A stretch of 64,000 nucleotides of DNA from an uncultured Gammaproteobacteria bacterium. GTDB lineage: Bacteria; Patescibacteriota; Patescibacteriia; Magasanikbacterales; GWA2-37-8. Below are positions 5,169 to 33,986 of the stretch, piece after piece. The stretch's first letter is position 1. Each line of letters starts with the position of its first letter. The stretch covers positions 70,512 to 134,511 of the forward strand of contig CAZEEW010000001.1 in the NCBI GenBank assembly GCA_964511375.1, written 5' to 3'. The translations under genes were made by a program, and so were the position numbers. Under the pieces are notes generated by a model that saw only the letters and a program-made list of their open reading frames with translations, ran no database searches and was not told the origin of the DNA.

Positions 5169-7271
5169 TTAGTTTGGATTATAGACTCGGGCGCCATTGT
5201 AAGCGTTAAGATATATCGCTGACATGGCGCTGACACCCTTCTTTACTTTAATGACTGCACCGTTGTATTTGCTGGCTATTAAGGGTCCAGAATAATTGGA
5301 GTAAGCAGTCCAGTCATATGTGGTGTGGTCACTGTACATCACTCTGACCTTGCCATTATTTAGTGCTGTCACACTTAAAAAGTATCTGTTAGCCAAGCTT
5401 TTATTTTTTGGATTAAGGCTCTTAAGAACCGGGTGTAGGCCGTTTTCAGCACGTGAGTTAACCTCATCAATGATGTTATCTCCATCGTTATCTATTGTGT
5501 CGCCACTTACCTCCAATCCAACCGAGGACAAGAAGTCATCAAAGTCAAAGTTATTAGTGGTGTAGTTAGTAGTATTTGGGTTCACACAAGCATTAATAAA
5601 GACGGTTTTACTCCCCAAACCATCTCGGTCATTGTCTTGGTAAAAATTTTGTGGGCCCAGTACCAAAACATTGTTGTCATCACAGTCATTAGCGGTTGTA
5701 ACACCGTCGTTATCATAGTCGTGGTCATTAAGGTCCAGACTATTTGTAACAAGACCTGGTTGGGCAGTACACATTAGAATCGGGGCACCAAATCCGAACC
5801 CGTCGCCATCAGCATCGTTATAGAAGCTTTGTTTGCCCAGGACCGCGCTATTGCGATCATCACAGTCATCAGTTAGGCTGATGCCGTCATTATCAAAGTC
5901 ATTATCATTGTGGTCAGAGTTGTTACTAACGTAGTTGTTGGGCGAGGAACAAGTTAGTACGCCGGTGCCATAACCAAGCCCGTCACCATCGTTGTCCTGG
6001 TAATATGTTTGTTTACCACGGATGTTAGTGTTGTGGTCATCACAATCGTTTGCAGTTGTTATACCGTCATTGTCAAAATCTTGGTCGTTTAAATCAGAGT
6101 TATTAGTCACATAGTTTGCCTGGGCAGAACACATTTGTGAAGCAGCTCCGGCGCCCAAACCATCACCGTCCCCATCGTAATAGAAATTTTGTGGACCTAA
6201 AATACTGGCATTGCGGTCGTCGCAATCAAGGCTAGCAATTAAATGGTCATTGTCGTAGTCGTTGTCGGCCTCTGGCCACGCGCTGTCTAAATAGTTGGAA
6301 ACGTATCCGGGTGGAGGAGTAAGAGAGGCAGAGGTAGTGGTTAAAAGAGAACCACGACCGTCTCCGTCATTATCTCGAAAATAGGTTTGTGTAAAACCGG
6401 TGTGCCAAGTTACGGTTGGTGTGTTGTCATGAGCAACGTAAGCATTTTTTCGGTTGTTGACAGTATCGGTGATTAGGGTAAAGCCTTCTCTAGCTGAACC
6501 CGGAACATTAGAATAGGTGTTAAGTAGAGTTCCGTCTGGTTTTACCTCTGCTAATAAGTTAACACTATCATCAAACAGAATAAAAAGCGTTCCAGTATCA
6601 CGATTAAAATATAAATCAGACACATCCTTCTTGGGTAGGCTTGGGTCCATCCTCATAGTACCAAGGTGGGTAACTTGTCCGGAAGTGGTTAGATTAACAT
6701 CAAAAATGTCAATCAAGTTATCGTTGGTGGTAATTCCGTCGGTTAAGTTATATTCTCTTTGAATGCCGGTGTAAAACACACCGCCAGAAGCTGAATTTGC
6801 ATACGGGTGGAAGCCGTTTGGCACAAAAGCCAGTCCTTCTAAACCAGAATTACCAAGTCCAGAGAGCCAGGTTCCAAGGCTCCAGTTTTTAGTAATACGA
6901 GGTGAACTGGAGGGAGAAGTCCAATCAAATTCTAAAATCGCTGGAGTGTTTTCAACCCCAATATAAATATAATTGCTAGCCGGATCAACAATAGTTAAGG
7001 CCTCATAGTCTCCAGTAATCTTCCACTCCACCTTATTATCCCCATTCTTGTCCATCATGGTAACGCGGTTTTTACCGTCGCTAGTTGGGTCGCTAACGGA
7101 AAACAACCTATTGGTATGCGCATTCCAAGCTAAACCACTTGGTTCATAAGGTGCGTTTAGAGAAATAGTGTTATTACCACTAGCTGGCCAGGAAAGACTG
7201 GCACTAAAAACAAAGGACGGAAACAGCAAAACGGCTAAAGTTAAGCTAAACCAAGCAGTGATTTTTTGCAT
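5169..7271 (-). CDS. Secreted protein with an N-terminal beta-propeller-like domain (phytase/SdiA-regulated-like) and four to five C-terminal tandem Asp/Cys-rich repeats that look calcium- or metal-binding (MopE-like).
   Basis: It has a signal peptide (MQKITAWFSLTLAVLLFPSFVFSA). A unit of about 48 aa, of the form YYQDNDGDGLG...C...NYV.NNSD.ND.DFDNDG...DCDD.N, is repeated. Confidence 0.65.
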   Translation of the reverse strand: MQKITAWFSLTLAVLLFPSFVFSASLSWPASGNNTISLNAPYEPSGLAWNAHTNRLFSVSDPTSDGKNRVTMMDKNGDNKVEWKITGDYEALTIVDPASNYIYIGVENTPAILEFDWTSPSSSPRITKNWSLGTWLSGLGNSGLEGLAFVPNGFHPYANSASGGVFYTGIQREYNLTDGITTNDNLIDIFDVNLTTSGQVTHLGTMRMDPSLPKKDVSDLYFNRDTGTLFILFDDSVNLLAEVKPDGTLLNTYSNVPGSAREGFTLITDTVNNRKNAYVAHDNTPTVTWHTGFTQTYFRDNDGDGRGSLLTTTSASLTPPPGYVSNYLDSAWPEADNDYDNDHLIASLDCDDRNASILGPQNFYYDGDGDGLGAGAASQMCSAQANYVTNNSDLNDQDFDNDGITTANDCDDHNTNIRGKQTYYQDNDGDGLGYGTGVLTCSSPNNYVSNNSDHNDNDFDNDGISLTDDCDDRNSAVLGKQSFYNDADGDGFGFGAPILMCTAQPGLVTNSLDLNDHDYDNDGVTTANDCDDNNVLVLGPQNFYQDNDRDGLGSKTVFINACVNPNTTNYTTNNFDFDDFLSSVGLEVSGDTIDNDGDNIIDEVNSRAENGLHPVLKSLNPKNKSLANRYFLSVTALNNGKVRVMYSDHTTYDWTAYSNYSGPLIASKYNGAVIKVKKGVSAMSAIYLNAYNGARVYNPN

Positions 7272-8487: not shown

Positions 8488-9846
8488 TTGAAAGTTGCTA
8501 TGGCGGATAAATTTAAACCTGTTCCGGAGGAAATGGCCGGCATGGAACAGGAATTAACTGAACAAGAATTTCAAAAATTAGAGAGACGTCACCAGAGAGT
8601 AGCGCTCACTGCTCTGTTTGAGCGACTAGCTCTGTCTTCGCGCCACTCTGAACTAACAGGCAATTTAAAGGCTGATTTCAATGTTTTGCTCGGGTCGATG
8701 TCAAAAATTTATGGAGAAAAGATCGGTGTCCTCCGACATAAAATCTTTGCAGACAGGGAATTTTTGACGAGGATGTATCATGTATATTTGGCTCTATTAA
8801 AAGAAAAAGAGTCAATTGACAAGGTCGCCTCTGATGTTTTCCACGATCATTTTAGGGAAATTCGTCATCCACCTACGCCACATGAATGGGGTAAAAAGGT
8901 CTTCGATTTATGTACTGGCAGTGAAAACAAAGGTGGGGCCACCTTAGAATTTAAGGAGGGTTTTGCTGTGTTTGCTTTATCTGATCGTGAAGACTACGAA
9001 TATTTTTTAGAAAGCATGCGCACAAGTACAGACATAGTTGAAAGAAGTTACGGCGTTTTTATTTCTAACTTTACAATTCCCGGTTATAATGAAATGAATC
9101 TTATTGTCGTAAATGGCGGCGTTTCTAGCCTTCTAAACGACACTTCTTCATTGGTATCACATGAAAAGCAGCATTTTATTAATAGGCGGCTAGTGAGCGA
9201 TGCAAACCGCCCGATGTTTGATCGGGTTGAATCGGACTATCTTAAGGCCCGCGGCGTGTCTGGTGAGACGCTTCGCAAAAGACTGTCTGAATCGGCTCTG
9301 ATGCAGCACATTAAGAATGAGGTGTTGGCTTTTTTGCGCGATGGAACTGGTGGTAGAGAGGAGGTTCGCTGGAACGAGGAGTCTGTGCCGGTGGGGATTT
9401 ACAATTATCTTCAGGGCTCTTGCTACGCACCCTTATTCGGAATGCTACCAAAAGCGCTACGTGTTAAAACAGACGAAGCTTTGCGGGAAATTGCCGTTGA
9501 AATGAATCTGCTAAAAGGATTTACTACACTGCCTGAACGCGCAGTTTTAGCAAATCATTTAATTTCCGTGCCGCTAGTTGACATGGCCGAAGAGATTAGT
9601 AGGTTTGCTAAGTTCTATACCAAGCGACTGCGAAGGTGCAATGTTATAAGGAGTTCCGTTAGAGAATACGGTCCAAAATTTAAGGACCCTGACCTTGAAA
9701 AAGAAGCCTTTAAGACCGCTAGAGCATTTGAAAGTCACATCGTTGACCCAAGAAACGTTGAGGACATTAGAGATCAGGTTGAAGGTGTGTTTAAGAAGTA
9801 CGGTGTTGCCTTCAAAGTAAGGCAACCCCTTGATTTTTCCACGTAA
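8488..9846 (+). CDS. Hypothetical protein of 452 aa.
   Basis: It is a long ORF with host-like composition. I recognised no domain. Confidence 0.5.
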   Translation: MKVAMADKFKPVPEEMAGMEQELTEQEFQKLERRHQRVALTALFERLALSSRHSELTGNLKADFNVLLGSMSKIYGEKIGVLRHKIFADREFLTRMYHVYLALLKEKESIDKVASDVFHDHFREIRHPPTPHEWGKKVFDLCTGSENKGGATLEFKEGFAVFALSDREDYEYFLESMRTSTDIVERSYGVFISNFTIPGYNEMNLIVVNGGVSSLLNDTSSLVSHEKQHFINRRLVSDANRPMFDRVESDYLKARGVSGETLRKRLSESALMQHIKNEVLAFLRDGTGGREEVRWNEESVPVGIYNYLQGSCYAPLFGMLPKALRVKTDEALREIAVEMNLLKGFTTLPERAVLANHLISVPLVDMAEEISRFAKFYTKRLRRCNVIRSSVREYGPKFKDPDLEKEAFKTARAFESHIVDPRNVEDIRDQVEGVFKKYGVAFKVRQPLDFST

Positions 9847-9872: not shown

Positions 9873-9944
9873 GCCCCCATAGTTCAATGGATAGAACAGG
9901 TCCGTCCTAAGGACAAAATGTGCGTTCGATTCGTGCTGGGGGCA
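9873..9944 (+). tRNA. tRNA-Arg (anticodon CCT).
   Basis: I folded the cloverleaf manually. The acceptor stem is GCCCCCA/TGGGGGC. The anticodon loop is GTCCTAA and the T-loop is TTCGATT. No CCA is encoded. Confidence 0.7.
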
Positions 9945-9950
9945 CTATAT

Positions 9951-10021
9951 GGGCCTATGGTTCAGTGGTAGAACGCGGCATTCGCATTGCTGAGACGGCA
10001 GTTCGATTCTGCCTAGGTCCA
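9951..10021 (+). tRNA. tRNA-Ala (anticodon CGC).
   Basis: The acceptor stem is GGGCCTA/TAGGTCC with a G3:U70 pair, which is the alanine identity element. The anticodon loop is TTCGCAT. The T-arm is GGCAG-TTCGATT-CTGCC. Confidence 0.8.
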
Positions 10022-10043
10022 CAAGAAAAATGTGATAAATATC

Positions 10044-10073
10044 AAATTTGTATAGACTAGTCTATACAAATTT
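10044..10073. repeat. Perfect 30-bp palindrome, AAATTTGTATAGACTAGTCTATACAAATTT (copy 1 of 2).
   Basis: I verified it base by base around the central CTAG. A second near-identical copy lies at 10828-10851. Confidence 0.8.
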
Positions 10074-10091
10074 TGGATTATAGGCTGGATT

Positions 10092-10742
10092 ATGTTTAAT
10101 TTAAGCACGAAAGAGTTCAAGAAAGTCATAATTGCTCTAACAATATACCTCACTTCTCTTTTTGCAGCAAACACCCTTGGTTTGAAAGTAATGCCTTTTT
10201 TGTTTGGTACGCATTTATCTGTCGCCGTGTTTTACTTTCCTTTCGTTTTCTTAATGACTGACATAATTGGTGAGATTTATGGCAAGAAGATGGCAAGGTT
10301 ATTTGTTTTGGCCGGTTTTTTAAGTACAGCCATGTTTGTAATTTACTCGTTCTTGTCCTTGGCAATGCCTTGGTCGGCGGATGGACTTTGGGCCAAAGAA
10401 GGGTATAATTTAATGTTTGGTATTTCTATAAGGATGGCTATTGCCTCCCTTCTGGCCTTTGTCATAGCGGAATATCAGGATGTTTTTTCATTCTTCTTCT
10501 TTAAAGATAAGTGGGGGCAGAGGTTTTTTTGGCTAAGATCAATGCTAAGTAATCTCTGGTCTCAGCTTTTAGATACTGTAATATTTATGCTGGTGGCCTT
10601 TGCTGGCGTATATCCACCCAGGGTTTTGGTAAGCATAATAATTACGTGGTGGTTATATAAAGTAGCAATGGGCGCCCTGTATTCTCCCTTGTTGTACATT
10701 GGTTTAATGTTGTTTCGGACAAAAGAGGCCGGAACCGATTAG
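10092..10742 (+). CDS. yhhQ: Queuosine precursor transporter, YhhQ/DUF165 (VUT) family.
   Basis: It is a polytopic membrane protein. The conserved N-terminal region YFPFVFLMTDIIGEIYGKKMA is typical of YhhQ. Confidence 0.7.
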   Translation: MFNLSTKEFKKVIIALTIYLTSLFAANTLGLKVMPFLFGTHLSVAVFYFPFVFLMTDIIGEIYGKKMARLFVLAGFLSTAMFVIYSFLSLAMPWSADGLWAKEGYNLMFGISIRMAIASLLAFVIAEYQDVFSFFFFKDKWGQRFFWLRSMLSNLWSQLLDTVIFMLVAFAGVYPPRVLVSIIITWWLYKVAMGALYSPLLYIGLMLFRTKEAGTD

Positions 10743-10763
10743 ATGTTTCACCTGAAACAATAA

Positions 10764-10790
10764 ATACCCCAGATCTGGGGGTATTCTTGT
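10764..10790 (+). terminator. Putative terminator hairpin after yhhQ.
   Basis: The hairpin is ATACCCC-agatctg-GGGGTAT, followed by a weak T-run (TCTTGT). Confidence 0.35.
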
Positions 10791-10827
10791 GGATAAGTGT
10801 GTGTATAAGGCAGCCTAACTGTGGATG

Positions 10828-10851
10828 TTTGTATAGACTAGTGTATACAAA
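10828..10851. repeat. Copy 2 of the 24-bp palindrome, TTTGTATAGACTAGTGTATACAAA, with one mismatch.
   Basis: It matches 23 of the 24 bases at 10047-10070. It lies between the convergent yhhQ and TrmB-like genes. Confidence 0.8.
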
Positions 10852-10938
10852 TGATCAATTTTCAGACCCAGAACCTTCCGGTTCTAACCTTTCGGAAGGT
10901 GGTTTAGTCGTATACAGATAGTGTTCAACGTGAAACAA

Positions 10939-11676
10939 CTACAGTGTTTTCCACAATACACTATGGATTAGCTTAAACGATCTAGACAGAAGCTGACTAG
11001 TAATCACTGTGGCAAATACCGGCTCTTCTAAGGTAATAAGCGCTACATTGTCCCCCCAGATCAGTATGTCAGTAGGTTGATCGTTCCCATCGCTATCTGA
11101 ATCTGGTAGAAACTTCGCATCGTATAGACTGCCCAATTGTTGCTTGTTTTCTGAATAATTTGTTTCACGTGAAATAGGGGTCAGTATGTCCCTAATAACA
11201 ACATGATTCTTCTTAAACTGACTAATCAGATAATCATATGTATCCGGCATTACCTCAGACAACCGGTGCGTAGATCCAATTGCCCAAAAGCCTTCGGCTT
11301 TAGCGCATTCGTAGTAAATATTTTTTACTTCCTCAACTCCATTGTAGAACCTAATCTTTGGCTTATTTTTGTTTGCGCCAAATAAAACTCGTAGTTCTGG
11401 CACTATCTCATTTAATGAGGCTCTTCGTTTGTCGAGAGAAAGAAGTAGTGAGTTAGGGTCATTAGCATAGTAAATCCACCTACCTCCGGTGCGCTGTTTT
11501 CTAATTAGACCACTGGCCCACAAACTCTTTAGCACGTTGTATGAATTGGTTCTTGTAATCTTGGTGCCTAAGGCCACCTCGGGTGGAGTGGCTTGACCAT
11601 GTTCCACGAGAAACAAATACACCTTAATTTCTGATTTACTCAGTCCGAATTGTAATAAATTAGCCTCGAGATTCAT
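10939..11676 (-). CDS. TrmB-family transcriptional regulator.
   Basis: It has an N-terminal winged-HTH (LSKSEIKVYLFLVEHGQATPPEVALGTKITRTNSYNVLKSLWASGLI) and a C-terminal TrmB-like domain. Confidence 0.6.
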   Translation of the reverse strand: MNLEANLLQFGLSKSEIKVYLFLVEHGQATPPEVALGTKITRTNSYNVLKSLWASGLIRKQRTGGRWIYYANDPNSLLLSLDKRRASLNEIVPELRVLFGANKNKPKIRFYNGVEEVKNIYYECAKAEGFWAIGSTHRLSEVMPDTYDYLISQFKKNHVVIRDILTPISRETNYSENKQQLGSLYDAKFLPDSDSDGNDQPTDILIWGDNVALITLEEPVFATVITSQLLSRSFKLIHSVLWKTL

Positions 11677-11985
11677 ATAATATTGTCAAAAAAAATTATA
11701 CCATTTTTATAACTATATGTAAAGAAAAATATGAAAAATATATAAAAATGATATAAATATAATTGACAATAATCACATCTTCCACCAGAATACATAGTTC
11801 TGTGTGGGTTATCCAGACAGCACAAAGAGAGAGCAAGGTAGAGAAACAAATCGGCATACTCGATCGATCATTAAGATCGAGAAGTGCGGAAAGATAGATA
11901 AAACCCAGTGCTTAAATGCGCTGGTTTTTTGTTTTTAAAAAGTAAAAAATATGGTATAATGTTCAGGAAGAAACAACCAATCTAT

Positions 11986-31747: not shown

Positions 31748-32539
31748 TTAATATCTTGGCGTATTGCTTAATTCCCAGATAAATTGAAATAAATTAGATT
31801 GCATTGTAATCAGGTTTTGATCTTCCAGTAAGAGTATGATGGGTTCGCGTCCATCGTGAGTAACGTAAAGCATTTTGGAATTATAAAGGTAAATGTCTTG
31901 GGTGGCAATCTTAAGGTTGTTTGGCCCGAGACGATGCCAAGTATAGTCATTAAGCGGTTGCTTTCTTATCCATTCCAAACTAGCAGTGCTATTTTCCACT
32001 AAAATATTGAGCGGCAGACGCTTATTAAGCCTTCTGACTTCAAAATCTTCTTGCACTTCTAAGCCGGGAATTTTTGGCGTACCAATATGTTTGTAATAAT
32101 AAATTATCTTAGGGTTAGAGCGCAAGATGTCTTCTAAGGCTGATTGGTAACCATGAATACCTTGAAAGATCGATGTGTCCGGTCGTTTAGACGAAAGACG
32201 GTAAGCAGCTTTTAGTTCAGGAATAATCTCCTGGATAGTTAGAGTGGTGTTTTTGAATTCCTGCCCGCGTTTGTCTAGCAATTCATATAACCGGTCGGGG
32301 TTTTCCACAATATATTCTGTTCGCCAACCCGCCTTTTCTCGTGTAACAAGGCCGGCTTCTTGTAAATTGTTTAGAACATAATACAATATGGTACGCGGGA
32401 AAGGTGTGCGTACTTGTAGTTCTTGTACTGTGCTTTTGGGATGCGTCAATAATAAAGAGTAAAGCAGGGACTCATTCTCCCCCAGCCCTAAATTCCGCAG
32501 GGCCTCTACCACCCGACTTTTTGTTTGTTTTTTAGCCAT
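31748..32539 (-). CDS. TrmB-family transcriptional regulator, a paralog of the gene at 10939-11676.
   Basis: It has an N-terminal wHTH (ESLLYSLLLTHPKSTVQELQVRTPFPRTILYYVLNNLQEAGLV) and a TrmB-like C-terminus. Confidence 0.55.
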   Translation of the reverse strand: MAKKQTKSRVVEALRNLGLGENESLLYSLLLTHPKSTVQELQVRTPFPRTILYYVLNNLQEAGLVTREKAGWRTEYIVENPDRLYELLDKRGQEFKNTTLTIQEIIPELKAAYRLSSKRPDTSIFQGIHGYQSALEDILRSNPKIIYYYKHIGTPKIPGLEVQEDFEVRRLNKRLPLNILVENSTASLEWIRKQPLNDYTWHRLGPNNLKIATQDIYLYNSKMLYVTHDGREPIILLLEDQNLITMQSNLFQFIWELSNTPRY

Positions 32540-32822
32540 ATGCGCTAGAATAACAGCTTTTTAATTATTTGTCAAATACATATTTACAATCTCATGCCTG
32601 GACTATTGCTAGGTATCCAAAAGTCTGCTATTATAAACGATCATCTTCAAAAAAAGAAGATGTTCAAATAATATTTACAAGCTCCTTAAAATTCGCAAAA
32701 AAGGCAAATTCAATCTGGCGAACCAACATTTTCTTTTAATTTTAGAAAAAAATGCTGGCTCGCCAGAAGGTCGTTCCTCACGGTGGGGGATGACTGGAAG
32801 GTAAGTTGGAAAGGAAAAAGAG

Positions 32823-33986
32823 ATGGAGTCGGTCCGTCTCTTGTCCTGGAGCTTCGTTCACGTGCTCCAGATGATTCTCAACCTCGCCCGGCGCGGCGGG
32901 GTCGACTTCTCCAACCCCGGTCTCCTCCGTGAGGCCCTGAACATCCGGGCCTGGGAGGCCCTCGACGAGTTGGGGCGCGACCCCAAACACTTGTGGCGGC
33001 TTACGCCGCCCCTGCACCAGGTTTACTCTCGGGCCCTGGCTTACGGAGCTGGGGACAGGTGTAGCCATAATCAGGTCTACATGGCAGCCGAACAAGCCAC
33101 CAGTCTCGCCGAGGTAGCACTCGGTGAGGTGGGGTACAGTTGGCTGTCGCGGCGTCAGGTTGCTGCTCAGCTGATCTACGCACTGGCGAATGAGATCCAG
33201 GGCGATCCGCACGCCCTGGACGCAGCCGAGCGTCAGTCCCGCTCCGAGGCCTTCCTCCGGGAGTTCTACGGGTGCGGGTGGGACGACCCCGACCCCGAGC
33301 TCCAGAAGGAAGTTGAGTACTACGAGCGCCAGCTCGGGGTGCTCTACTGCCTCAGGGCGATCGCGGTGCTCACCGAGCATCCCGAGCTCGACCTCGTCGA
33401 GCTGACCCGCCAGGGCCTCATGAAGTACGGGGTCGTGGACACCCGGGGCCGCCGGGTGTGCTACTGGTGCTCCGGTGCCCCCTGCGTCTGCGGTGGGCGG
33501 AAGGGCGGGATGAAGGCCCGCCGGCCGGAGATCACCTCCGACCTCGTCTGGGCCCGGGGACTGCCGGAGATGGACCAGCACATGGTCGTCTACGGCGTGT
33601 CTCGGAACTCGGCCATCAACGCCCTCGCGGGTGTGGTTCGCTCCCTGTCGGAGGACGGTGGGGAGTACGGATGGATCAACCTCATGTCCCGCTGTGGCGG
33701 GACGAACCGGGGAATCCAAGAGAGGCTCGGCTGCCTCTACCTCGGCAGCAGCCGGCACCCCCGCATGGCGGCCAAGAAGTTCGACGCCGAGGGCGTGCCT
33801 CTCATCGAGGGGCTCTACTCGGAGGCGGCGGACGCCGTCGTCTCCTGGCCCTGCCTCGTGACACAGGCCTTCGGTCTGCAGTTCACAAGGTCGGTCTTAC
33901 TCGGTCTCCAGCACATGGCCGATGGCGCCGGGGTCACGCTCGAGACCCCAGACGATCTGACCCGGACCATCCCGGTCCGCGAGTAG
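32823..33986 (+). CDS. GC-rich hypothetical protein of 387 aa (island B, gene 1).
   Basis: It has a strong GC3 codon bias in this frame. The SD-like AGGAAAAAGAG precedes the ATG. It has a Cys cluster (CYWCSGAPCVCGG). I recognised no domain. The overlapping antisense ORFs are composition artifacts. Confidence 0.55.
   Translation: MESVRLLSWSFVHVLQMILNLARRGGVDFSNPGLLREALNIRAWEALDELGRDPKHLWRLTPPLHQVYSRALAYGAGDRCSHNQVYMAAEQATSLAEVALGEVGYSWLSRRQVAAQLIYALANEIQGDPHALDAAERQSRSEAFLREFYGCGWDDPDPELQKEVEYYERQLGVLYCLRAIAVLTEHPELDLVELTRQGLMKYGVVDTRGRRVCYWCSGAPCVCGGRKGGMKARRPEITSDLVWARGLPEMDQHMVVYGVSRNSAINALAGVVRSLSEDGGEYGWINLMSRCGGTNRGIQERLGCLYLGSSRHPRMAAKKFDAEGVPLIEGLYSEAADAVVSWPCLVTQAFGLQFTRSVLLGLQHMADGAGVTLETPDDLTRTIPVRE

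Follow-up and report, generated by a model that had tools for sequence, protein, structure and literature searches.

RacA of Bacillus subtilis is a MerR-like winged-helix protein that recognizes ram, a GC-rich palindrome of 14 bp whose copies cluster near oriC, and dimers of the RacA and MerR types bind palindromes. In Streptomyces, BldC is a small MerR/Xis-like developmental regulator and BldN is an ECF sigma factor; domains of the Xis and BldC types as a rule recognize direct repeats rather than palindromes of 24 bp. The operators of TrmB and TrmBL1 are the TGM (TATCAC-N5-GTGATA) and TACT-N3-AGTA. The ultra-small Patescibacteria (CPR) are uncultured and have very few transcription factors, and to our knowledge hardly any information is available on how they regulate genes or control the cell cycle.

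Here we analysed two copies of a 24-bp palindrome (PAL1 and PAL2) in a 64-kb stretch of CPR DNA, referred to in its entirety as the window. An earlier note on this DNA had suggested, among other readings, that the two copies delimit a single-gene cassette containing yhhQ. Comparison with related loci suggests that PAL1 and PAL2 are two members of a clade-wide set of putative 24-bp binding sites, for which an excisionase-type helix-turn-helix protein (HTH_17) is the likeliest binder, that yhhQ is a passenger and that PAL2 belongs to a composite with DnaA-box-like sequences; we assign this reading a probability of roughly 0.6. The original cassette idea is thereby deflated, as yhhQ seems neither specially regulated nor mobile. 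What emerges is a near-invariant 24-bp site associated with a small set of loci: an operon for a conserved Xis-like HTH protein, adjoining an ECF sigma gene, a structured RNA with a dksA-like gene, and a region of tRNA genes, parS-like sites and DnaA-like boxes.

The palindromes and their surroundings

The flanks of the two palindromes were as previously described, tRNA-Ala, yhhQ and the convergent TrmB-like gene all being confirmed by tRNA prediction or Pfam (Table 1). An inverted-repeat search resolved PAL1 into 15-nt arms (10044-10058 and 10059-10073) that were 100% complementary with a spacer of 0, and both this search and the sequence itself bore out the claimed perfect 30-bp palindrome at 10044-10073, AAATTTGTATAGACTAGTCTATACAAATTT. 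The claimed 24-bp second copy with a single mismatch was also present at 10828-10851, the sole departure being G10843, which lies opposite G10836 (a G/G clash). The spacing had to be corrected from 20 and 19 bp: 21 nt separate the end of the tRNA from the 30-mer, and 18 nt separate the 30-mer from the yhhQ ATG. The 18-mer core matched the window at two places with up to three mismatches (10050-10067 with 0 and 10831-10848 with 1), and no match was obtained in 100 dinucleotide-preserving shuffles. A position-weight matrix built from 177 related sites scored PAL1 and PAL2 at 43.4 and 42.4 bits, the next best score over the 64 kb being -11.7, and detected no weaker copies in the 64-kb window. The absence of further copies, originally judged by eye, therefore held over the 64 kb in both scans.

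Table 1. Features around PAL1 and PAL2, in window coordinates
Feature	Position	Strand	Basis or remark
tRNA-Arg(CCT)	9873..9945	+	ARAGORN, Rfam; first of the conserved tRNA pair marking the type C locus
tRNA-Ala(CGC)	9951..10022	+	ARAGORN, Rfam; conserved neighbour in relatives
PAL1, 24-bp core TTTGTATAGACTAGTCTATACAAA, perfect	10047..10070	no strand	symmetry reaches 30 bp (10044-10073)
yhhQ (Vut_1, queuosine-precursor transporter)	10092..10742	+	Pfam 1e-38; NCBIfam TIGR00697
parS-like site TGTTTCACCTGAAACA	10744..10759	no strand	consensus match
GC-rich hairpin, likely yhhQ intrinsic terminator, bidirectional	10762..10786	+	kept in L001, L034
DnaA-box-like trio: TGTGGATAA (10788), TGTGTATAA (10800), TGTGGATGT (10820)	10788..10828	-	sequence match
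PAL2 TTTGTATAGACTAGTGTATACAAA	10828..10851	no strand	one dyad-symmetry departure, G10843
parS-like site TGTTCAACGTGAAACA, directly past TrmB stop codon	10922..10937	no strand	same place in L102, L038
TrmB-family winged-HTH gene, convergent with yhhQ	10939..11676	-	Pfam; homologues
31-nt inverted repeat across divergent TrmB/TPR-protein promoters	11681..11771	no strand	kept in L001, L102

The yhhQ product scored 124.6 bits against TIGR00697 (cutoff 51), and the gene's own likely terminator lies between its stop codon and PAL2. Two further parS-like sites, at 11161-11176 and 11600-11615, fall inside the TrmB gene. The inverted repeat in the TrmB promoter region is unrelated to PAL in sequence and is a candidate operator of TrmB itself. 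In the order tRNA-Arg, tRNA-Ala, PAL1, [yhhQ], three boxes, PAL2, parS sites, TrmB, the window represents the locus type designated C below; in about 30 related loci, too, tRNA-Arg(CCT) has PAL as a neighbour (loci are denoted by L-numbers).

A clade-wide motif and its proposed binder

The PAL consensus is TTTGTATA[C/G]ACTAGT[G/C]TATACAAA, a dyad-symmetric 24-mer. Across 177 sites, 22 of the 24 positions showed over 90% invariance, and only positions 9 and 16 varied. The pairs at these two positions were 73 C/G, 11 G/C, 39 C/C and 36 G/G, so that 73, 11 and 75 (C/C and G/G together) were observed where 77, 15 and 67 are expected for independent half-sites. Since positions 9 and 16 vary independently, PAL resembles a duplex site rather than a hairpin. 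The pattern was found in at least 117 genome stretches; the contigs with the motif that belong to Magasanikbacteria-like CPR genomes number over 100, and about 105 of the matches listed were from Magasanikbacteria, Falkowbacteria, Kuenenbacteria or Patescibacteria MAGs. Among the matches listed, 136 of 163 sites were intergenic by a crude ORF call. The dyad sequence was kept at orthologous non-coding positions while the flanks diverged, as for an operator.

The motif did not occur dozens of times genome-wide, an outcome that the earlier note had considered; the matches listed, which come as 8-kb stretches, point to at least roughly 5-8 copies per genome. With 2 copies in 64 kb and about three orthologous loci in each of six MAGs, a REP/BIME-type palindrome was rejected, and no transposase was seen next to PAL sites. 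A LexA/SOS or NrdR box was also considered and rejected, the neighbours (ECF sigma, dksA-like, EF-G, tRNAs and RmuC) not being SOS or nrd genes. Each PAL half fits GT-N-TA-N-AC, which we take to be the GntR/HutC-type core and regard as a lead; no GntR gene was found among the recurrent PAL neighbours. Literature searches for the PAL motif string or for CPR origins returned nothing relevant.

The genes next to PAL formed three recurrent sets, and one locus of each type was present in 6 MAGs, those from which several loci were fetched. In type A, a small HTH gene of the excisionase type adjoins an ECF sigma gene and has PALs at its promoter. Type B consists of a PAL, three DnaA-box-like repeats and another PAL, followed downstream by an unannotated RNA and by a dksA-like gene; this RNA had no Rfam match even at E <= 10 and was not found in the window. 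Type C contains RmuC, tRNA-Arg and tRNA-Ala, then DnaA-like boxes with PAL, followed by a parS cluster.

Type A loci carried 2-4 PALs, about 70-135 bp apart (mostly 80-100), upstream of the conserved HTH_17 gene. We assessed the position of these sites in 76 loci ascertained by the HTH_17 protein alone, independently of the motif. At least one PAL was located within 450 bp upstream in 72 of the 76 loci, 66 of which had 2-4 PALs, and none was found elsewhere in those loci. The HTH_17 promoter had the form TTGAC-N17-19-TAnnnT, and in 64 of 72 loci the proximal PAL began within the last 1-3 nt of TAnnnT, overlapping the core promoter; at yhhQ, PAL1 precedes the ATG by 21 nt and there is no clear promoter. 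Divergent HTH_17 homologues had variant palindromes at the same place. Judged by its location in the -10 hexamer, the proximal type A PAL is in the classic position of a repressor operator.

The HTH_17 protein is 117 aa long and showed a median identity of 70% across PAL-bearing MAGs, against 26% for the adjacent TrmBs. It scored 25.1 bits against Pfam HTH_17, just below the cutoff of 27, its match to TIGR01764 was also below cutoff, and an HMM search of PDB sequences with its profile gave no match. In the structural model, the winged-HTH core had a pLDDT of 73-85 and the C-terminal half was of low confidence. The best fold matches were Xis, the RacA-DNA complex, the BldC-DNA complex and MerR N-terminal domains, at weak E-values (0.008-0.04, and 0.035-0.1 for the RacA comparison). 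The adjacent sigma factor had the BldN-family ECF model as its best NCBIfam match, below cutoff. The PAL binder is probably the HTH_17 protein, with an Xis/BldC/RacA-like winged-helix fold. Such a protein would repress its own operon and, in addition, bind PAL at loci of types B and C. Autoregulation is read from the position of the sites, and HTH_17 may be the target rather than the binder; a 24-bp palindrome would also be unusual for an Xis- or BldC-type domain. Since the HTH_17 gene is absent from the 64-kb window, we infer its presence in this genome from relatives.

Readings of the yhhQ region

Both window PALs were kept in L001 (TrmB 70% identical) and L034, where the flanking non-coding DNA had diverged; PAL2 was identical in these two loci, and PAL1 lay 21 nt upstream of the yhhQ ATG in three lineages. 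L125 and L126 represent the window's own population. Among the matches listed for 117 PAL-ascertained loci, yhhQ was situated between PALs only in the lineages of the window, L001-L004 and L034. The PAL/DnaA-like box/PAL module occurred without yhhQ in L102, L027, L083, L030 and L038, and some relatives had a GNAT gene in its place. More specifically, a tRNA-following PAL equivalent to PAL1 was present in L102 and L027, the composite of boxes and PAL2 was kept in L083, L030 and L102, and L102 had both PALs with the boxes between them. Absence of the motif from the yhhQ loci of relatives, named in the earlier note as counting against a local regulatory role, was observed for the distant ones (L207-L210) but not for the close ones (L001, L034); in L207, yhhQ directly follows tRNA-Ala. 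The view of yhhQ as a regulated cassette was not upheld, as the motif is not local and the module exists without yhhQ in relatives. We propose that the two PAL sites were there first and that yhhQ, a passenger, either arrived or was kept between them.

PAL1 may nevertheless affect the gene. No preQ1-I, -II or -III riboswitch was detected by Rfam in the yhhQ 5' leader even at E <= 1, nor were other Rfam elements found upstream of yhhQ, and the start codon has no usable Shine-Dalgarno sequence. A sigma-70 promoter was not called, since there were only weak candidates (TAGACT-17-GATTAT in the window and TACACT-17-GATATT in L001) and their conservation was too low. In L001 and L034, a GC-rich intrinsic terminator, missing in the window, lies between tRNA-Ala and PAL1, so that a yhhQ promoter is needed within about 75 bp that include PAL1. 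Because PAL1 is 21 nt from a start codon devoid of a Shine-Dalgarno sequence, a protein bound there would cover the yhhQ promoter or leader and would probably repress the gene as a side effect.

The earlier note had offered paired operators of a dimeric regulator, with the adjacent TrmB-like protein as the candidate and yhhQ as a regulated cassette; such a protein would bind both palindromes, possibly by looping. Sites for a dimeric DNA-binding protein remain our interpretation; TrmB as that protein we consider improbable. TrmB-family dimers do bind palindromes, about 17 type C or related loci have a TrmB-family gene no more than about 1 kb from PAL, and the constant distance of PAL1 to yhhQ in three lineages would suit such a regulator. 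However, PAL is found where the TrmB gene ends and not at its promoter, which contains the other conserved inverted repeat, and many type C loci have PAL with no adjacent TrmB. Conversely, PAL was missing from the homologue loci L005-L007 and from a second TrmB paralogue in the window (31748-32539), and most PAL sites are unconnected with yhhQ. The PAL-adjacent TrmBs share a median identity of 26% (36% between the window and L102) although PAL is almost invariant; neighbours this divergent are probably not the binder of such a site, and the TrmB-like gene is probably a bystander of PAL in the sequences compared.

Bidirectional terminator or insulator hairpins had been suggested as well. We regard it as very unlikely that the PALs act as RNA or DNA hairpins of this kind, or as RNase processing sites, delimiting the yhhQ transcript. 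In the window, PAL1 can fold into a stem of 13 bp (-11.8 kcal/mol, z = -5.3) with UUUU directly after it, and the GC-rich terminator located behind tRNA-Ala in L001 and L034 is missing there. The stem is AU-rich, however, with only two G-C pairs, no U-tract follows PAL2, or PAL1 in L001 and L034, and a terminator scan called neither PAL1 nor PAL2. There was no compensatory change at the variable pair, C/C and G/G occurring at chance frequency, and it is the sequence, beyond the structure, that is kept across more than 100 genomes. Moreover, yhhQ is already served by a canonical terminator, and PAL overlaps the -10 hexamer at HTH_17 genes. This last overlap with a promoter argues also against the proposal that the PALs are recombination or transposition sites (attC-, dif- or REP/RAYT-like) flanking a mobile single-gene cassette beside a tRNA. 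A tRNA-adjacent position is a typical integration hot spot, and the gene content after the tRNA pair varies by lineage (yhhQ alone, yhhQ accompanied by an F420-ligase-like gene, a GNAT gene or no gene at all); cassette-like gene turnover may occur near the tRNA genes. Yet the sites are few and occupy orthologous positions across genomes, no integrase, Xer or Y1-transposase was among the annotated ORFs adjoining them, L102 retains both PALs and the intervening boxes without yhhQ, and L207 has yhhQ immediately after tRNA-Ala with no PAL. We therefore consider recombination sites as remote an explanation as hairpins.

The composites of PAL and boxes in types B and C raise a further possibility, which we rate as doubtful, though less so than the TrmB explanation: they could be part of oriC, a DnaA-titrating or -reactivating locus, or a RacA/ram-like anchor beside parS, where the PAL protein modulates DnaA or ParB and PAL1 and PAL2 have nothing to do with yhhQ expression. 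In the window, the boxes have offsets of 0, +12 and +32, the last abutting PAL2, and this fixed geometry recurs in type B and C loci. Up to 120 bp from PAL, perfect TTATCCACA boxes had a density of 2.64 per kb, against 0.03 per kb elsewhere; this enrichment of about 80-fold applied to loci of types B and C and was not seen in type A. The window has four parS-like sites (1 mismatch each to the 16-bp consensus TGTTNCACGTGAAACA), and all of them cluster in about 870 bp, 10744-11615, with 0.14 expected; a parS cluster by PAL is also kept in relatives, and PAL itself has no parS match. Types B and C are 8-40 kb apart on shared contigs, in L084 and L092 the distance between the module and dnaA-dnaN is 3-4 kb, L085 has seven PALs within 360 bp, and the HTH_17 fold resembles that of RacA, a binder of palindromes near oriC. 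Against this, the GC skew around 10.8 kb was positive on both sides with no inversion, none of dnaA, dnaN, parA and parB was found in the window, and no AT-rich unwinding element or DnaA-trio was evident beside the boxes when the sequence was read directly. The boxes number only three, one of them perfect, and the type A sites are plainly promoter operators. Neither GC skew nor a nearby dnaA lends support to an oriC at the window site.

Under the favoured reading, of clade-wide binding sites with yhhQ as passenger, PAL2 would be part of a DnaA-box composite and would more likely act with DnaA than on yhhQ, whether to control replication or the chromosome or to co-regulate transcription. As PAL2 has no adjacent promoter, a purely transcriptional role fails to explain it. 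More speculatively, and with odds well short of even, PAL, the box trio and parS might constitute an undescribed origin-proximal control module of ABY1/Magasanikbacteria-type CPR, whose Xis/RacA-like protein would autoregulate, occupy box clusters by the centromere and gate initiation or anchor the origin region. If so, the module could link growth or attachment to a host with the cell cycle, a suggestion prompted by the neighbouring ECF sigma factor, DksA-like factor and structured RNA. PAL could also be used as a marker of the origin-proximal region in fragmented MAGs.

Comparison with described systems

The type A arrangement resembles that of small autorepressed HTH regulators (Xre/Cro-type, MerR-like): the dyad site begins in the -10 hexamer (64/72 loci), protein and site are both highly conserved and, by analogy, the additional upstream PAL copies might allow cooperative binding. 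Unlike those repressors, HTH_17 has an excisionase-type domain, matched below cutoff, and no recognizable dimerization or effector domain, and PAL, at 24-26 bp, is of unusual length, with conservation that extends over the whole site and takes in the central ACTAGT. TrmB and TrmBL1 operators share with PAL a palindromic form and a TrmB-family gene nearby. PAL differs from them in sequence and spacing, and neither TrmB promoters nor other TrmB loci contain it.

BldC offers a closer likeness at the level of the protein, since HTH_17 is also a small excisionase-like winged helix with no effector domain and its model matches the fold of 6amk/6ama, in the absence of HMM-detectable sequence homology to PDB sequences. 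The setting is similar too, the neighbouring sigma factor best matching the BldN-family ECF model, below cutoff. BldC, however, binds AT-rich direct repeats head-to-tail, whereas PAL is a palindrome. With RacA, the HTH_17 core model matches the DNA-binding domain in complex with DNA (5i44; TM 0.63-0.65 on target); PAL, like ram, is palindromic, and the PALs of types B and C lie by parS and DnaA-like boxes, near dnaA in some genomes. Conversely, PAL is an AT-rich 24-mer unrelated to ram (TGACGCCGGCGTCA), it has few sites per genome compared with about 25 for ram, some of its sites are at a promoter, and HTH_17 has neither a coiled-coil nor a DivIVA-binding tail.

Finally, datA and DARS of E. 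coli (IHF/Fis) and Cori of Caulobacter (CtrA) resemble the type B and C loci in having, as judged here from sequence, a fixed DnaA-box cluster flanked by candidate sites of a second protein in an origin-proximal location. The window differs in having no evident unwinding element and no skew switch and in boxes that are DnaA-like by sequence only, and its accessory site, PAL, doubles elsewhere as a promoter operator.

Conservation and sequence features of the palindromes

The two copies of the palindrome (PAL) that the earlier note had described on either side of yhhQ, the queuosine-precursor transporter gene, were confirmed in the sequence and by an inverted-repeat search, as were the flanking tRNA genes, yhhQ and the convergent TrmB-family gene. 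Its remark that no other copy was seen by eye also held: an 18-mer core matched just these two places in the window at up to three mismatches (0 matches in shuffled window sequence), and scoring the 64 kb with a weight matrix derived from 177 sites of the family brought up no weaker copies.

Features of the window around and beyond the two palindromes
Feature	Position	Remark
452-aa ORF	8488-9846 (+)	between RmuC and tRNA pair; no Pfam match
tRNA-Arg(CCT) and tRNA-Ala(CGC)	9873-10022	
PAL1	10044-10073	perfect over 30 bp
yhhQ (Vut_1/YhhQ queuosine-precursor transporter gene)	10092-10742	
parS-like sites	10744-10759, 10922-10937, 11161-11176, 11600-11615	each one mismatch from TGTTNCACGTGAAACA
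GC-rich terminator hairpin of yhhQ	10762-10786	
DnaA-box-like repeats	10788 (TGTGGATAA), 10800 (TGTGTATAA), 10820 (TGTGGATGT); through 10828	left of PAL2
PAL2	10828-10851	24 bp, one mismatch
TrmB-family gene	10939-11676	convergent
31-nt inverted repeat	11681-11711, 11741-11771	84% complementary
Second TrmB-family gene	31748-32539 (-)	
High-G+C segment	32000-34100	55.7% G+C
Overlapping opposite-strand ORFs	32778-33758 (-), 32823-33986 (+)	long; no Pfam match

The closest relatives of the window TrmB-like protein were found in Patescibacteria metagenome-assembled genomes (MAGs). Since both palindromes were kept at the same positions amid diverged non-coding DNA in the syntenic stretch L001 (TrmB 70% identical; L002-L004 are near-identical copies), and were also kept in place in a second relative, L034, the sites are under selection. 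The 452-aa ORF was common only to L001-L004 among the loci examined. Scanning species-representative genomes with TGTATANACTAGTNTATACA returned at least 117 stretches; about 105 of those listed came from Magasanikbacteria, Falkowbacteria, Kuenenbacteria or unclassified Patescibacteria MAGs, a count that takes in many "uncultured Gammaproteobacteria" records with Magasanikbacteria-like gene content, and about 10 were scattered in other phyla with different flanks, approximately the chance expectation. TPA MAGs titled "uncultured Gammaproteobacteria bacterium" (L008, L010, L011, L013 and many more) have the gene sets of Magasanikbacteria MAGs, with RmuC-tRNA-TPR, ECF sigma-HTH_17 and dksA-lspA in common, and the organism label on such records looks wrong.

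The consensus over 177 sites was TTTGTATA[C/G]ACTAGT[G/C]TATACAAA; invariance exceeded 90% at 22 of the 24 positions, and 136 of 163 sites were intergenic by the crude ORF calls made for the related loci. Positions 9 and 16, which had been left free in the scan pattern, were the sole variable ones and would pair with each other in a hairpin. Their observed combinations (C/G 73, G/C 11, C/C plus G/G 75) were close to those predicted for independent half-sites (77, 15 and 67, respectively), so pairing is not under selection, and what is conserved is the sequence, not a structure. The lack of pairing selection, an AT-rich stem with two G-C pairs only and without a general U-tract, and the conserved sequence together argue that a symmetric protein recognizes PAL as duplex DNA. 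The behavior of positions 9 and 16, the two G-C pairs and a U-tract found only after PAL1, and in this window only, speak against a terminator or processing hairpin. The terminator or insulator hairpins of the earlier note are unlikely on the same grounds, PAL failing the tests for intrinsic terminators and yhhQ having a terminator of its own; the recombination sites that it also suggested are likewise unlikely, as PAL fails the defining tests for attC-like sites. PAL also fails those for REP elements, the outcome by which the note would have dropped a local regulatory role, and is present in two copies in 64 kb.

Three types of PAL locus

Clustering of neighbor genes and mapping of tRNAs revealed three recurrent types of PAL locus. 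In type A, an ECF-type sigma gene and a DUF5667 gene diverge from a gene for a small helix-turn-helix protein, HTH_17 (100-135 aa, "excisionase family"), and a DUF11 surface-protein gene, with 2-4 PALs between. Type B, preceded by an EF-G, PNPase or LTD-domain gene, consists of PAL, three DnaA-box-like repeats, PAL, a sigma-70-type promoter, a conserved unannotated ~370-nt RNA and its terminator, a dksA/traR-type gene and lspA. Type C, to which the window locus belongs, comprises RmuC, tRNA-Arg(CCT), tRNA-Ala(CGC), DnaA-box-like repeats with PAL, a parS-like cluster, sometimes a TrmB-like gene, and a large TPR/O-antigen-ligase-like membrane protein. Among the fetched stretches, six MAGs carried one locus of each type, PAL copies per genome being lower bounds, and types B and C lay 8-40 kb apart on one contig in five cases. 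L085 carries seven PALs (1-3 mismatches each) at 5998-6357 after tRNA-Arg, far denser than any other locus.

The type B RNA unit upstream of the dksA-like gene (L053 2545-2940, L115 6768-7170, L010 5600-6030 (-) and ~20 other loci) has its own TTGACA/TATAcT promoter and intrinsic terminator, and its helices show compensatory changes, such as GTAG..CTAC versus GTTG..CAAC and GTCCAC..GTGGAC versus GTTCAC..GTGAAC. It had no match in Rfam even at E <= 10, was not found in the window, and probably represents a structured RNA of the clade that has yet to be described. At type A ECF sigma genes, a conserved TGTAACA-N16-CGTCTAC ending a few nt before the ATG (L112 2845-2900 (-), L108, L048, L033) looks like an autoregulated ECF promoter with a leaderless mRNA.

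Candidate binding protein and the place of yhhQ

In type A, the HTH_17 gene is driven by a TTGACA-N17-TAnnnT promoter, and the PAL nearest to this promoter begins where its -10 hexamer ends. Ascertainment bias was removed by searching metagenome contigs with an HTH_17 protein alignment; 76 of the resulting loci had 200 bp or more of upstream sequence. PAL (up to four mismatches) lay within 450 bp upstream of HTH_17 in 72 of the 76, two to four copies being present in 66, and in 64 of these 72 loci the proximal copy overlapped the last 1-3 nt of the -10 hexamer; none occurred elsewhere in the ~5 kb fetched per locus. Divergent HTH_17 homologues had variant palindromes in the same place, e.g. 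AGTATACACTAGTCTATACT and GTGTACACTAGTGTACAC. This is standard repressor-operator geometry, most simply autoregulatory.

HTH_17 is our candidate for the PAL binder. Its median identity across PAL-bearing MAGs was 70% and 46 columns were invariant among 40 aligned sequences, a strong conservation that matches the near-invariance of the site and counts in its favor. The core of its structural model (residues 15-65, pLDDT 73-85) is a winged helix whose best structural matches, at weak E-values of 0.008-0.04, were Xis, the DNA-bound RacA DNA-binding domain, DNA-bound BldC and MerR-family N-terminal domains; a sequence-profile search of the PDB gave no match. The gene was not found in the 64-kb window, and the common sample origin of L175, an HTH_17 locus with PALs, and L003, a contig of a close relative, is suggestive of HTH_17 in that relative's genome. 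The earlier note had instead named, in one of its three readings, the TrmB-like neighbor as the obvious candidate. The evidence speaks against it: TrmB-like neighbors of PAL have a median identity of 26% (36% between the window and L102), many type C loci have no such gene, PAL lies at the 3' end of the gene and is absent from its promoter, which has an unrelated conserved inverted repeat of 31 nt, and no PAL was present at two other TrmB homologue loci or at the second TrmB paralogue of the window. The 31-nt repeat, which extends across the divergent TrmB and TPR-protein promoters and is kept in L001 and L102, is a candidate operator of TrmB itself. Adjoining the second TrmB-family gene, the high-G+C segment, set against a G+C of 0.38-0.48 for most of the window, could represent foreign DNA or else an unusual gene.

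The same module recurs without yhhQ in relatives: L102 has tRNA-Arg, a terminator, PAL, ~80 nt, boxes, PAL, parS and TrmB; L027 has PAL, a box and PAL after tRNA-Ala; and the boxes-PAL composites of L083 and L030 align with that of the window. In L038, a GNAT acetyltransferase gene stands in place of yhhQ. Among the PAL-ascertained loci listed, the window lineage and its two closest relatives alone had PALs on both sides of yhhQ. No PAL was found at the yhhQ homologues (69-78% identical) of the two other CPR genomes checked (L209, L210), and in the Magasanikbacteria contig L207 (duplicated in L208) yhhQ directly follows tRNA-Ala and is not preceded by PAL; 2 kb beyond, next to ychF, that contig has DnaA boxes and a degenerate PAL. 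The motif is therefore kept at yhhQ in L001 and L034 and absent there in L207, L209 and L210, so that its expected presence at relatives' yhhQ loci was borne out in part, and the bracketing reflects the gene's position, not the yhhQ-specific regulated cassette proposed earlier. In those other lineages, yhhQ is immediately followed by an F420_ligase-family (PF01996) gene (L207 3001-4349, L209, L210), probably in one operon; this partner is missing in the window.

The 24-bp core of PAL1 ends 21 nt before the yhhQ ATG in the window, and PAL1 is similarly close to it in L001 and L034; yhhQ lacks a usable Shine-Dalgarno sequence, and no preQ1 riboswitch was found there. Since L001 and L034 have an intrinsic terminator between tRNA-Ala and PAL1, the yhhQ promoter must lie within ~75 bp including PAL1; a promoter search gave weak candidates only. 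Once bound, a protein on PAL1 would be very likely to interfere with transcription of yhhQ; we put such an effect at somewhat short of even odds and take it as a by-product, not as the purpose of the site, because the equivalent site in L102 has no downstream gene. Both the binder's identity and the effect on yhhQ are predictions. PAL2 lies beyond the yhhQ transcript end, as placed by the terminator, has no adjoining promoter and is part of the DnaA-box composite.

DnaA boxes, parS-like sites and the standing of the motif

The box trio of the window has the 0/+12/+32 spacing of type B and C loci elsewhere, its last box abutting PAL2. Perfect TTATCCACA boxes had a density of 2.64 per kb in types B and C up to 120 bp from PAL, versus 0.03 per kb elsewhere (~80-fold), and no enrichment was seen near PAL in type A. 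The 64 kb contain four parS-like sites, all within 870 bp (10744-11615; 0.14 expected by chance), two of them inside the TrmB-like coding sequence. As many relatives have kept a similar cluster at their type C loci, it probably represents a ParB loading (centromere) region.

The main rival explanation accordingly places PAL in origin-proximal DNA, as accessory sites at DnaA-box clusters or for RacA-like anchoring. The box enrichment and the seven PALs within 360 bp in L085 speak for it, as does dnaA-dnaN 3-4 kb from the module in two MAGs (L084, L092), an identification made with B. subtilis queries that is sound given E = 5e-122. In the window, however, the GC skew has no switch at 10.8 kb, dnaA, dnaN, parA and parB are absent, and no unwinding element was seen at the boxes; we consider this explanation unlikely. 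Since PAL fails the terminator, REP, attC-like and TrmB-operator tests, no paper containing the motif was found, and HTH_17-family proteins are annotated merely as "excisionase family / helix-turn-helix", we place PAL as a predicted new family of transcription-factor operators whose regulon is small. Its coupling to DnaA boxes and parS may prove more novel than the operator role. The closest working analogue of PAL is provided by small HTH regulators that repress themselves through an operator lying over the -10 hexamer, and for the PALs of types B and C, by RacA/ram sites and by DnaA-box clusters with accessory-factor sites.
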